Part shown: positions 39,001 through 42,000 of the stretch, in pieces
Layout of the letters: every line of letters starts with the position of its first letter
Numbering within the stretch: the stretch's first letter is position 1
From: Candidatus Babelota bacterium
Lineage (GTDB): Bacteria; Babelota; Babeliae; Babelales; Vermiphilaceae
DNA: 64,000 bases
Direction: 5' to 3'
Assembly: GCA_049325595.1 (NCBI GenBank)
Contig: JBMOLF010000015.1
Span: 187,238 to 251,237 of the forward strand
Made by a program: the position numbers

Positions 39001-42000
39001 TTTTGTGTTGCAAATAATTGAGTAAAAATATCTTTTTGAATCTGCGGAGCCGTTTCTTCTGGCTCTTTTAATTTATGTAATACATAACTACCGCCAAACC
39101 AAGAATCTTTAACATATTCTATTTTTAAATATCCTTTTACTGCCATTTCTACCAATTCTGAAGAAAAAGCAGTTGCATTAAAATTTTGACGATTCAGGTA
39201 ATTCACTGCACCGGGCGTTAACCCTACGGGAGGAGTAAAAAGAGGAATAATCGTACCAAGTTTTTGTTCTCTTTTTATACGCGCATACGAATGTCCAATA
39301 AAAATTAAAAGCAAAAGTGAAACAAAAGCCATCCACAATTGGTATTGATAATCTTTTATAAAATAACCAACCTGTTCAATACCCGAAGGTTCTTGCACAA
39401 ATCCTTTGGGCCAACTTACTACAATTGTAAGCCCTTGGCTTTGATTATACGTTCGCTCAAGTGGACGAGTTGTACTAAAGGTAATAGATCCATCTTTATT
39501 TTTTACTACATTGTAATCATGACCCTTTTCCCCAATAAATCCCGTATACGCTTCTGCGTTAACAAGATGCATTGGTATATCTTTGGGCAGTTGCACTGTT
39601 GCTCGTGCACGCATGATTGGCAAACGCCAATAATTTCCTGTTACATTCCAGTACAATTCATCATGATCGTTAAAAAAAAGCAATTGTCGTTTAGTATTAT
39701 AGGTTATTATATATTCATGAACTCCTGGATCAAGATAAGTATTCTGTTCACCTATAAATAATTCTATGCCAAAGGGAACTTGATTAATAAATGAATTAAC
39801 TAAATTACCATTGTGCAACGTTTTGAGTATATCCACGTCAACATAATACTCACCGATAGTAGGTCGCATATACTTAGTTGGTAAAGCGCGCAGTATGCCG
39901 CGCTTTATTTGATTTCCTGTTGCTACGACGGTAATCTTTTCGGTCACTGTCATAGAACTGTCTTGATGTATTAGTAGATTAGCATCGAATAACAATATTC
40001 GTTCTGCTGCGTAAGTGTGTATACAAAAGATCCAGCTCAATAAGAGCTGGATTTGTATCATAGTTACTTTATTCATGCTATTGCCTAGAATTTTACTTGA
40101 GGAACTTCTCGCTCAGCACCTATAGTTAGTTCAAAGTATGGAACTTTTTCATAACCACTCATTGATGCAATAATACGTGATGGAAATGTTGCCACCGCAA
40201 CGTTATAATTACGAGCTGCGCCATTATAATAACGACGTGCAAGCTGAATATCGTTCTCAATGGTACCTAAATCTTGCTGCAATGATAAAAAATTTTCGTT
40301 TGCTTTCAGGTTAGGATAATTTTCAGCCACGGCAAACAATGTTTTTAACGTTTGAGTTAATCCACTTTCAGCAGCAGCTTTATCTTCTACTCCTCGTGCA
40401 TTAATAGCCGCAGAACGTGCTTGTGCAATTTGTTCAAAAATAGATTTTTCATGCGTTGCATATTGTTTTACCACGGCAACTAAATTAGGAATTAAATCAT
40501 AGCGCCGTTTAAGCTGTACATCAATACCACTCCATGCTTCATCAACCAATGCTTTTAGGTGAACTAACTTATTAAAACCACCAATAAACCAAAAAATACC
40601 AACTGCCGCAATTGCAAGAATTATTAATAAGGTTGACATGTTATTCCTTTCTTTTTCATGAAAGTAATTGTGATAACGTATGTAAAAAATGTAGATGGTT
40701 AAATGGTTTTAGCTCAAGACTTTATACAAAGATTAGTAACAGATTGATTTAGTTTATTTTTTAGTCAACATTTTATCTGCACACCAAACAGATAAAAAAT
40801 GGCTCCCTGTCCTGCGTAGTTTTAACGTAGCCGGATGGCAGTCGTCGCTAAAGCTATGTCGCACACGTGCCAAGTCGGAAGGCCTGGATAAGCGAGTTAG
40901 TCCGTCTTCGCCGAAGGCTACTTCGGACAGTCTTCGCATATTTTTGAAAAAGTCATTTAAAAAAATGGCCTGCCAGTCGTAGCTTGCCAAGCCGGAAGGC
41001 CTGGATAAGCGAAGACTGGCGCGCCCGGCACGAATCGAACGTGCAACCTACAGATTCGAAGTCTGGCGCTCTATCCAATTGAGCTACGGGCGCATTTTAA
41101 TCGCTCTTAACCTTACCAAAAAAAGTTAATTTTGCATAGCCTCTCAATCTTTGACAAGAGAACAAGTAAAAATCCCTATTTTTAAGCTTATTTTATTTGA
41201 AAATTTAAAATCTTCAAATTTTTGATCAAAAACTCAAAAAAGCCTTATTTCAAAGGTAAAAATGACTATTTTATATTGCAACTAGAATAACCAATTTGGT
41301 ATCTTGATAAAAGAGATAATACACTCGTTGTAATGGCGTAAAATACGAAAAAAAGGAATATTTATGAAGAAGCTAATTACAATAATATTATGCGCTGCAT
41401 CCTTATCAGCATATGCCTATTGGACTGATAGCTGGAGCAATCCCTATGCAGAAAAATATGGATTTGAGCAATACAATTATTATAAAACAAAGTTTGCAGA
41501 TAAAACATTTGATAGTCCTATGGATTATCAATATCAATATTTTAATCCAAATTTAGATAAATATGGTTACCAGCCAAAAGAATATGAACCGCACGAGTCT
41601 GAATATAATACATCAGCAACGCCAAGTTCATCTTATTATAAAAAGACAGCCGATGATCTTAACAGAACTATCGGTCCTGTATATCAACGATAAAATTTGT
41701 TAAAGGGAGAATTTTAACTATGGCACGTAAAACAAATACAAAAAAACAAACAAAACATTCAATAGCAAATGGCAAGAAAAATACAAAAGCAGCTAAACAT
41801 AAACACTCTGCGCACTGTAACTGTTAAACCTAAAGGGAGAGATTATGACTAAACATATAAAAGAACAAAAATGGAATAATTCTGAAGAAAAAAAGACGGT
41901 AAAACCAGAACACAAACAAATGCATCCTGGATACCAAGGTGTTCAAAAAAAATCAGCCAAGATTGAAGAATCTAAAGAAAACGTTGAACATAAATCCAGC

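Follow-up and report, generated by a model that had tools for sequence, protein, structure and literature searches.

A hairpin cassette fused to tRNA CCA ends in a Dependentiae genome, probably a gene-less copy of an element with a small GIY-YIG nuclease gene

Hairpin cassettes behind two tRNA-Arg genes

The window analyzed here is a stretch of 64,000 nt on contig C15 of G000, a Dependentiae (TM6) genome. It contains tRNA-Arg(TCG) at 41017..41093 on the minus strand, identified both by ARAGORN and by Rfam, which is followed on the same strand by a cassette reaching from the first base after the CCA to a GAGCCA at 40800. The CCA itself (41017-41019) makes up the outer 5' strand of hairpin P1 (40973..41019), which has the form CCA-GTC-TTC-[29-nt core]-TAC-GAC-TGG and is seen in RNA and DNA folds as well as in covariation. 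P1 encloses the 29-nt core hairpin GCTTATCCAGGCCTTCCGGCTTGGCAAGC (40982..41010) with an invariant G.T wobble. It is followed by the tail CAGGCCA (40966..40972), a second "CCA end" in which TGGC..GCCA makes a small palindrome, and then by a run of seven T that leads into an AT-rich linker (TTTTTTTAAATGAC..., 40938..40965). Next come the distal complement GCGAAGACTG (40928..40937), which is perfectly complementary to CAGTCTTCGC at the junction of tRNA and P1 and pairs with it in the DNA centroid fold, and a second hairpin predicted by folding, H2 (TCCGAAGTAGCCTTCGGCGAAGACGGA, 40901..40927). A second copy of the core with an extension module (40841..40893) occupies the place that the nuclease gene takes in the complete element described below, and the cassette closes with a right-end module, ...ATCC-hairpin-GGAC-AGGGAGCCA (40800..40840), which recurs 3' of a GIY-YIG gene on contig C7. 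All these parts lie on the minus strand. The 225-nt stretch folds with z = -2.9, whether it is treated as RNA or as DNA. Two further candidates were rejected: micro-ORFs in the cassette, sense or antisense, whose frame is not conserved (by eye), and a promoter in the linker (TTGAYA..ATAGCA), whose -10 box is unconvincing. Contigs from four DNA sequencing runs, when compared, showed repeat-induced breaks and one low-depth joint, and yielded nothing usable on expression or polymorphism of the cassette.

A second gene-less cassette, 91% identical to the first, lies at 37980..38211 behind tRNA-Arg(CCT) (38209..38285), again on the minus strand, with P1 at 38165-38211, the distal complement at 38121-38130, H2 at 38094-38120, the core-extension module at 38033-38085 and the right end at 37980-38020. 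In the whole genome, related GC-rich hairpin cassettes start at the base after the CCA in 10 of the 39 tRNA/tmRNA genes: gene-less copies follow nine tRNA genes, the two in the window included, and the sole gene-bearing copy follows tmRNA. Nine of the ten loci named in the survey's finding are recovered (tmRNA, the four tRNA-Ser genes, Arg-ACG, Arg-CCT, Arg-TCG and Ala-GGC), whereas its "weak" copy behind Arg-TCT turned out to be the terminal part of a gene for a large serine recombinase, encoded on the opposite strand; a copy behind tRNA-Gln(TTG), at C15:81117-81181, lies beyond that list. Two cassette fragments are found away from any tRNA. The G+C content of the first 100 nt of the trailers is 44-56% (38% for Arg-ACG), compared with ~34.5% for the genome. 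Rfam yields no match on the cassette, even at E-values up to 10, and none beside the copies that are not next to a tRNA.

The CCA-anchored pattern and the GIY-YIG gene

In general form P1 can be written as tRNA-CCA-n3-TWC-[variable inner hairpin]-TWC-n3'-TGG-C-N2-5-GCCA, where the outer pairs use the CCA of the tRNA itself. Our search found 609 matches of this pattern in 102 of 151 Dependentiae genomes, the remaining 49 having none, versus 0 for the reversed-pattern control; this count is far beyond chance. The tRNA T-loop (GTTCRA-N15) precedes 514 of the 609 matches (84%), and 67 of 70 in the stored loci. The survey was right that a sequence-conserved hairpin cassette abuts the CCA, as it was about a conserved module across related genomes: the 29-nt module is present at 79-95% identity in 24 of 41 of them. 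A scan of one genome per species gave 104 module stretches, and the 80 that were listed are all in Dependentiae/Babeliales-type records. The core has 0 matches in viral contigs, where a relaxed pattern gave 79 parsed matches, three with CCA and a complementary stem and the remainder attributable to chance.

The outer stem is upheld by covariation. Of 210 cells, 174 hold Watson-Crick pairs between n3 and n3', where shuffles average 104 and reach 123 at most, and among 73 distinct core-bearing copies 97 cells are changed on both sides, as opposed to 29.6 in the shuffles, none of which (0/500) came as high. A 10-nt distal complement of CA-n3-TWCGC with at most one mismatch follows 27 of 71 P1 hairpins, and that of the window copy is perfect. 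The core occurs in both orientations, with the G.T wobble staying on its own strand.

The sole small GIY-YIG ORF of G000 (C7:69559-69801) encodes 80 aa, matches PF01541 with E = 3e-14 and possesses the conserved residues Y5, Y17, R27 and E63. It has no NCBIfam match, and its best sequence matches in the PDB are UPF0213 BH0048 (6e-6) and SLX1. The gene, which does not appear in the survey's finding, is located within the tmRNA cassette (C7:69359-69868), with P1, the distal complement and H2 upstream and, downstream, a right-end hairpin that is the same module as in the window copies. The complete element consists of P1, AT-rich linker, 10-nt complement, H2, nuclease gene (a filler module in gene-less copies) and a right-end hairpin ending in GAGCCA. 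The order tRNA-P1-linker-complement-H2-gene is repeated in the sister species G001, in G018, at two loci of G039 and at three further loci, and in G001 P1-type composites are present on both sides of the gene. Of the 151 genomes, 87 have both gene and P1, 7 the gene only, 15 P1 only and 42 neither, i.e. P1 is found in 87 of 94 gene-positive and 15 of 57 gene-negative genomes (odds ratio 35, with relatedness ignored). A CCA-anchored hairpin before an 80-aa GIY-YIG gene is also present in Alphaproteobacteria, Desulfobacterota, Verrucomicrobiota and others: in these other phyla 51 of the 68 loci with enough upstream DNA have the end of a tRNA or tmRNA no more than 450 nt upstream of the gene, and among the 55 loci with such a tRNA there are 46 in which CCA+n3 meets its exact 6-nt complement within 90 nt.

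We consider it rather likely that the stretch in the window represents a MITE-like copy, devoid of the gene, of a small element fused to tRNA/tmRNA CCA ends, the complete form of which carries the gene for an 80-aa single-domain GIY-YIG nuclease. The same arrangement could also be read as an mRNA leader or processing element, in which the nuclease gene uses tRNA promoters to yield a tRNA-mRNA co-transcript, P1, the distal complement and H2 act as an RNA switch for release or translation, and gene-less copies are remnants. The distance from the tRNA to the start of the gene is indeed 60-250 nt, no separate promoter is evident, and CA-n3-TWCGC has two mutually exclusive pairings, but this reading leaves unexplained why gene-less copies have spread to many tRNAs and why there are copies in reverse orientation, and a characterized Ssn relative is described as having no action on RNA (PMC11893778). 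We regard it as improbable.

Mobility and maturation

Comparison with the sister species supports the suggestion of the survey that the cassette passes from one tRNA gene to another much as a mobile element would. Only three of 39 sites are filled in G001 (Arg-TCG, Ala-GGC and tmRNA), all with n3 types other than those of G000, and the presence/absence differences between the two species are precise, CCA-flanked indels that may be gains or losses. At tRNA-Gln the indel comprises exactly 65 nt between AGCCA repeats, with the downstream terminator retained. Stem variants are common to different tRNAs of one genome, and nested mosaics are seen. Behind tRNAs, n3 is ACC in all 8 listed copies of G031, TAC in 13 of 14 in G078 and GCT in 5 of 5 in G058, while tRNA-Glu is followed by five different n3 types across genomes.

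For the gene-less-copy interpretation we propose a mechanism by analogy to the Ssn nucleases. The nuclease would recognize P1 as single-stranded DNA and nick at or near the junction of CCA and element, after which repair or template switching, aided by the CCA...GCCA repeat, could copy the module to tRNA 3' ends or delete it from them. To our knowledge, GIY-YIG enzymes form no covalent intermediate, and for this reason the copying step is one that we wholly infer. Units consisting of P1 only may be leftovers of deletions between repeated TGGC..GCCA tails. At the RNA level the module would be part of the 3' trailer and need removal, presumably by RNase E/G and exonucleases, and termination at the T-run would be incidental.

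The survey had seen in the cassette a dedicated 3'-trailer module of a lineage poor in RNases, and a version of this idea has to be weighed: a CCA-pairing hairpin plus T-run that terminates transcription and guides 3' maturation, with gene conversion keeping the copies alike. Its premise is sound insofar as searches of five genomes found neither RNB nor RNase III domains, and nothing above the cut-off for RNase Z, in any of them, although RNase E/G is present in all five, as are PNPase, RNase PH and an enzyme of the CCA-adding type. The module always lies on the sense strand of the tRNA straight after CCA, its hairpin with the invariant G.U wobble is upheld by covariation, and about 29 of 38 tRNAs in G018 carry it (by eye), a density that would also fit a selected role. 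On the other hand, G018 has copies between the tRNAs of a single operon, 36 of 39 sites in the sister species lack the module, almost a third of the Dependentiae genomes lack P1 altogether, and the canonical terminator of tRNA-Gln is still in place behind the insert. A T-run (at least 6 T in the 9 nt after GCCA) follows both window copies and 23 of 70 overall, leaving 47 without one. The occurrence of the core in both orientations, with the wobble tied to its own strand, likewise argues against an RNA module. The sparse filling of the sister species and the scarcity of T-runs do not agree with a terminator or maturation signal required by the missing RNases, and the presence of hairpin and linked nuclease gene in phyla with ordinary RNase sets speaks against a device specific to this lineage. 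We therefore find a dedicated trailer module unlikely, if the least unlikely of the alternatives to an element derived from the nuclease gene.

Two other readings invoke familiar elements. Small GC-rich imperfect palindromes in mosaics, inserted 3' of a fixed short sequence and ending in a similar one, recall REP/REPIN- or IS200/IS605-type hairpins moved by a Y1 (HUH) transposase, and an IS200-like element does exist in G000. Its end hairpins are unrelated to the cassette and its target is different, however, and Y1_Tnp (PF01797) is present in only 8 of 41 genomes, with none found in the copy-rich G002, G012, G017, G018 and G022; on these grounds Y1 transposase was rejected as the mobilizer, and we hold this reading to be very improbable. 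Since tRNA 3' ends are common integration sites, and serine-recombinase genes adjoin three other tRNAs in G000, the cassettes might alternatively be attL/attR scars of integrase-borne islands, or else ordinary intrinsic terminators. The repeat at the far border consists of CCA only (AGCCA at tRNA-Gln) rather than at least 15 nt of tRNA, and 7-10 nt separate the main stem from the T-run, which is abutted only by a mini-stem of 4-5 bp, CTGGC..GCCAG. A resident reverse transcriptase was rejected as well, for such a gene is present in 4 of 41 genomes and was found neither in G000 nor in G018. Scars or plain terminators appear to us the most remote of the explanations considered.

A bolder version of the nuclease-linked element, which we put forward tentatively and think may well prove wrong, is that of a pan-bacterial selfish element: the encoded CCA, common to every tRNA gene of these bacteria, would be half of the recognition hairpin of the element's own single-strand-specific GIY-YIG nuclease, and a nick at the junction would drive homing-like copying of units of 30-500 nt between tRNA genes. 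In that case few known units of mobile DNA would be as small as those made of P1 only (~30 nt), and the variable n3 triplet would be a specificity code co-evolving with each nuclease. If our reading holds, three subjects hitherto kept separate would come together: the hairpin repeats of reduced genomes, the recently described small nucleases that act on single-stranded DNA, and tRNA genes as places of insertion. One protein of 80 aa and one hairpin of 45 nt would make a simple system open to testing. The GC-rich islands that lie without annotation 3' of tRNA genes in many metagenome-assembled genomes would find an explanation, a cause of breaks in assemblies and an origin of tRNA-trailer RNAs would be recognized, and nucleases with new specificities for single-stranded DNA would become available, the n3 triplet showing the specificity of each. 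An apparent "maturation signal" could then be a parasite of tRNA gene ends.

Comparison with known systems

In the literature on Dependentiae, on palindromes at bacterial and mitochondrial tRNA genes and on Ssn we found no description of a CCA-anchored repeat, and a term search of the Chromulinavorax genome paper returned no mention of hairpins, palindromes or terminators. Structured repeats near tRNA genes are known from elsewhere. GC-rich palindromes flank tRNA genes in the mitochondrial DNA of Neurospora, and fungal mitochondria harbor mobile GC clusters; both mobility and a part in processing have been ascribed to such repeats. The cassettes resemble them in layout, as GC-rich hairpins in a small AT-rich genome clustered at tRNA genes, but the fungal repeats are organellar, and we know of no CCA-built stem or nuclease gene among them. 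Rickettsia palindromic elements and other MITEs are small structured repeats that proliferate in the reduced genomes of intracellular bacteria; the former insert in frame into genes, unlike the cassette, which is tied to tRNA CCA ends. With REP/BIME/REPIN sequences and their RAYT the cassette shares short GC-rich imperfect palindromes, inverted doublets, mosaics and a small nuclease gene flanked by repeats. It differs from them in that the enzyme is of the GIY-YIG rather than the HUH/Y1 type, Y1_Tnp is unassociated, and anchoring to tRNA CCA ends is strict. In Methanopyrus kandleri a palindromic motif ~10 bp downstream of half the tRNA genes was proposed to be a maturation signal (PMC5217627). 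There too a palindrome is conserved downstream of many tRNAs within a single lineage, but it is archaeal and, as far as the accessible part of that source goes, lacks CCA pairing, an associated gene, evidence of mobility and sequence likeness.

The Ssn nucleases, the nearest published counterpart, are described by Chenal et al. 2025 (PMC11893778) as single-domain GIY-YIG enzymes of ~80-150 aa with cognate NTS/SRM hairpin repeats on both sides of the gene. Their only substrate is single-stranded DNA, which they cut a few bases 5' of the hairpin. The hairpin has a variable loop, and three bases immediately before the palindrome are critical; the repeats have multiplied at other places of the genome, and the layout is IS-like (PMC11893778). 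Babela massiliensis is listed in the supplement with 0 SRM and no ssnA (PMC11893778). The published SRM motif, HGTCWYN(0-2)YYVSBRHN(0-5)WNVSBRGN(0-2)RNCYNB, has 0 matches in G000, compared with 0-3 in 20 shuffles (~1.4 expected), and matches in 1 of 80 gene loci; resemblance is confined to the ends of GTC-type P1 hairpins (AGTCTW ... GNCTGG), which recall those of the motif. This mismatch, together with the PDB matches to UPF0213 and SLX1, leaves membership of the Ssn clade (cd10448) unproven. The likeness to Ssn lies in the 80-aa single-domain GIY-YIG protein, in the cognate hairpins flanking its gene, in the amplification of the repeats in genomes that hold the gene, and also in the variable hairpin loop, the three bases before the palindrome and the IS-like layout. 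What sets the cassette apart from Ssn, in whose description the main text of PMC11893778 makes no mention of tRNA, is an outer stem built with the CCA of tRNA or tmRNA and the position of 84% of the copies on tRNA ends.

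Cassettes in the genome and their common anatomy

The genome under study (G000; 1.29 Mb, 34.5% G+C, 24 contigs) belongs to the Dependentiae/Babeliales on the evidence of a conserved protein, its nearest named record being 'Candidatus Dependentiae bacterium Noda2021'. In the window (C15:187238-251237) it encodes, on the minus strand, tRNA-Arg(TCG) (window 41017-41093) and tRNA-Arg(CCT) (window 38209-38285), and at the base after the CCA of both genes begins a GC-rich cassette of ~220-230 nt; the two cassettes are 91% identical to each other. Inspection of all 39 tRNA/tmRNA trailers of G000 identified related cassettes behind tmRNA, Ser-TGA, Ser-GCT, Ser-CGA, Ser-GGA, Arg-ACG, Arg-CCT, Arg-TCG, Ala-GGC and Gln-TTG. 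Nine of the ten cassettes reported in the survey's finding are retained in this list, to which we add the overlooked Gln-TTG copy; the tenth, a "weak" copy behind Arg-TCT, is spurious, because a large serine-recombinase gene abuts this tRNA, and the sequence, common to the Asp and Glu trailers, is the end of that gene on the opposite strand. Such genes (ILIARVSTEEQ...GNSLPAQ; C10:282499-283659, C10:99704-101173 and C7:6901-8371, all outside the window) end directly at the 3' ends of tRNA-Asp, tRNA-Arg(TCT) and tRNA-Glu, and one or two of the three appear broken into two ORFs. They are a second type of tRNA-end neighbour, unrelated to the cassette.

All copies share one grammar. The first hairpin (P1) reads CCA-n3-TWC-[variable inner hairpin]-TWC-n3'-TGG, in which the CCA of the tRNA itself, together with three variable bases (n3, with n3' as partner), forms the outer stem, and two unpaired TWC triplets lie opposite one another. 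The inner hairpin is GCTAAAGC, GTTCTGCGAAC, a 29-nt core, or a longer insert. P1 is followed by a tail, C-N2-5-GCCA, and often by G plus a run rich in T; 27 of 71 parsed copies continue with an AT-rich linker, a 10-nt complement (at most one mismatch) of CA-n3-TWCGN, and a second hairpin (H2). The window copies go on with a second core-plus-extension module, and their right end is hairpin-bearing (...GGAC-AGGGAGCCA at 40800). For the 225-nt stretch, RNA and DNA folding each gave z = -2.9, with P1 predicted in both minimum-energy folds and an alternative long-range pairing in the DNA centroid fold.

Of 41 related genomes, 24 contain the 29-nt core, with identities of 79-95%. When one genome of each prokaryotic species was scanned with the exact pattern, 104 stretches matched, and all 80 that were listed belong to Dependentiae/Babeliales-type records, some of which bear other labels from automatic pipelines. 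A P1 pattern with n3 free and any inner part of 4-34 nt matches 609 times, in 102 of the 151 Dependentiae genomes scanned, while the same pattern read backwards has no match in these 151. If the tRNA T-loop is required at its canonical distance upstream (GTTCRA-N15), 514 matches (84%) remain, in 98 genomes; in the loci examined individually the T-loop is present for 67 of 70 P1. In these loci n3 and n3' pair in 174 of 210 cells (shuffle mean 104, maximum 123), and most of the 36 non-pairing cells belong to a single T.C or T.T mismatch that recurs in the GTC type. For 73 distinct core-bearing copies, a set picked by a pattern that fixes most of the core, pairing reaches 93.8% of cells, one G.U(T) pair being invariant, and both sides are changed in 97 cells, where shuffles give 29.6 and none of 500 reaches 97.

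Copies away from tRNA ends also occur. About 25-28 of 36 such core copies (within L117-L196, e.g. L135, L146, L151, L162 and L173) carry the stem in a variant form, (C/T)CC(A)GCC...GGCGG(G/A), in which an A is bulged, and the 198 nt around them contain no tRNA; in some genomes, therefore, the core also belongs to a class of dispersed repeats not linked to tRNAs. At L012, L033/L193 and L186, P1 stands behind sequences ending ...ATGTCTGCCGCCA or ...AAGCCCCGCCA, neither tRNA nor an Rfam family; these may represent transcripts of an unknown kind that end in CCA, or else P1 may have inserted at CCA sites other than tRNA ends. Three IMG/VR contigs filed as viral (L269, L284, L288) carry a genuine P1, two behind a tRNA-like 3' end and one behind a sequence resembling a reversed tRNA; they may be misfiled Dependentiae-like DNA or tRNA-carrying phages. 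G000 itself has two fragments away from tRNAs (C15:86567-86651 and C7:69836-69858). The former, outside the window, is a second copy of the tRNA-Gln insert with ~20 nt of downstream flank and no tRNA in front, and seems to have arisen by segmental duplication, not by a new insertion. On contig C23, ~270 nt 3' of tRNA-Ser(GGA), a stretch (..CTGTCAGGTCTGAAAAGAAGCAGCAGGGG..) conserved with the sister species G001 looks by eye like an SRP (4.5S) RNA gene.

Gain, loss and the maturation reading

In the complete genome of G001 the element is present only behind Arg-TCG (a minimal 30-nt unit), Ala-GGC and tmRNA, each with an n3 different from that of G000, and the remaining seven G000 sites are empty. 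At tRNA-Gln the two species differ by a precise 65-nt indel between AGCCA repeats, with the same canonical terminator downstream in both; Ser-CGA and Arg-ACG present the same picture, with conserved downstream genes. The n3 type is common to different tRNAs of one genome and varies between genomes: tRNA-anchored copies have ACC in 8 of 8 listed in G031, TAC in 13 of 14 in G078 and GCT in 5 of 5 in G058, and behind tRNA-Glu alone n3 is TAC, GCT, ACT, ACC or GTC depending on the genome. Since a change of n3 requires matched changes at three places, these differences are replacement or concerted spread, not drift. In a related metagenome run, one contig of depth 2 joins tRNA-Arg(TCG) via a minimal hairpin to the Arg-CCT cassette flank, omitting 3025 nt of window 37983 to 41009 (lemA, a DUF2207 gene and tRNA-Arg-CCT); the join may reflect loss of the DNA between the two cassettes, which are direct repeats, or a different order of genes.

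The empty sites in G001 speak against the survey's reading of the cassette as a lineage-specific maturation device, as do a T-run after GCCA in only 23 of 70 copies and, in G018, copies placed between the tRNAs of one cluster (Tyr-Gly-Thr-Thr) whose members stand close together in G000 and G001. A selected role as a tRNA-trailer RNA seems unlikely to us, and this explanation keeps its chance mainly because of the high module density in some genomes: in G018 the module is found, by eye, on roughly 29 of 38 tRNAs. The RNase inventory behind the maturation proposal holds in the five genomes tested: neither an RNB nor an RNase III domain was found in any of them, and nothing reached the cut-off for RNase Z. 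However, all five possess RNase E/G, PNPase, RNase PH, a DEDD exonuclease and a CCA-adding-type enzyme. The RNase PH frame, open in G000, is interrupted in G001 (C1:244327-244718; one TAG, one TGA), which could reflect a pseudogene or a sequencing error.

A GIY-YIG nuclease gene linked to the cassette

G000 has one small GIY-YIG ORF (80 aa, C7:69559-69801), located within the cassette behind tmRNA. The right-end module after it is the same as that ending the window copies and the Gln copy; therefore the window cassettes possess both arms of the tmRNA unit, with a filler module replacing the gene. The arrangement tRNA-P1-linker-complement-H2-gene is repeated elsewhere: at Ala-GGC in G001, at Arg-ACG in G018, at two loci in G039 and at three others. 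Across the 151 genomes (family membership at E of at most 1e-12) gene and P1 occur together in 87, the gene only in 7, P1 only in 15 and neither in 42, an odds ratio of 35 uncorrected for relatedness; many of the gene copies listed follow a listed P1 on the same strand at a distance of roughly 65-290 nt.

The family is remarkably uniform (80 aa, 55-85% identity) and extends to Alphaproteobacteria, Desulfobacterota, Verrucomicrobiota, Kiritimatiellia, Patescibacteria and others. Among 68 loci from these other phyla with at least 400 nt upstream, 51 have the gene no more than 450 nt behind the end of a tRNA or tmRNA, and 46 of 55 loci with such a tRNA have an exact 6-nt complement of CCA+n3 followed by the same tail and second hairpin. 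Five large genomes of those phyla contain 0-2 P1 matches each, the only genuine-looking ones being two in one Bradyrhizobium genome; thus multi-tRNA amplification of gene-less units is seen only in the Dependentiae sampled. The same genomes also encode a second kind of small GIY-YIG ORF (L386, L388, L390, L393; 97-149 aa, YhbQ/UPF0213-like, ending ...KKWNRKKKEALI), with no tRNA or P1 within 1.5 kb at the four loci inspected.

Anatomy, CCA anchoring, covariation, gain and loss, genome-specific types and gene association are established observations, alongside which we propose a possible cycle. The nuclease would recognise P1 as single-stranded DNA and nick at or near the CCA junction; units would be copied or deleted through repair or template switching between CCA and GCCA repeats, and deletion between repeated TGGC..GCCA tails would leave P1-only units. 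In the RNA, the trailer would presumably be removed by RNase E/G and exonucleases.

Comparison with known hairpin-repeat systems

REP/RAYT and IS200/IS605 follow a similar logic, but a Y1 enzyme of their kind shows no association with the cassette. G000 does carry an IS200-like element of 566 bp (C15:98483-99048 and C19:6911-7473, outside the window) with a 155-aa Y1 transposase and end hairpins CCTCGCGGCTTGCCGCGGG / ACCTCGCTGCTTGCTGCGAGGT; four contig ends coincide with its copies, and the sister species has none.

Ssn nucleases are reported to be GIY-YIG proteins of a single domain, and cognate hairpin repeats lie on both sides of their genes. The hairpin is bound only in single-stranded DNA, and the cut falls a few bases upstream of it; cutting depends on the three bases before the palindrome and does not require the loop (PMC11893778). 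The main text of that paper makes no mention of tRNA, and the supplement, in the files searched, lists Babela without SRM and without ssnA (PMC11893778). The published SRM motif is absent from G000 and occurs at just 1 of 80 gene loci. By sequence, the solved structures nearest to the 80-aa protein are UPF0213 and SLX1 proteins, and we regard the family as no more than a candidate for the Ssn clade (cd10448). On every feature that can be read from sequence, the CCA-hairpin system nevertheless resembles the Ssn nucleases.
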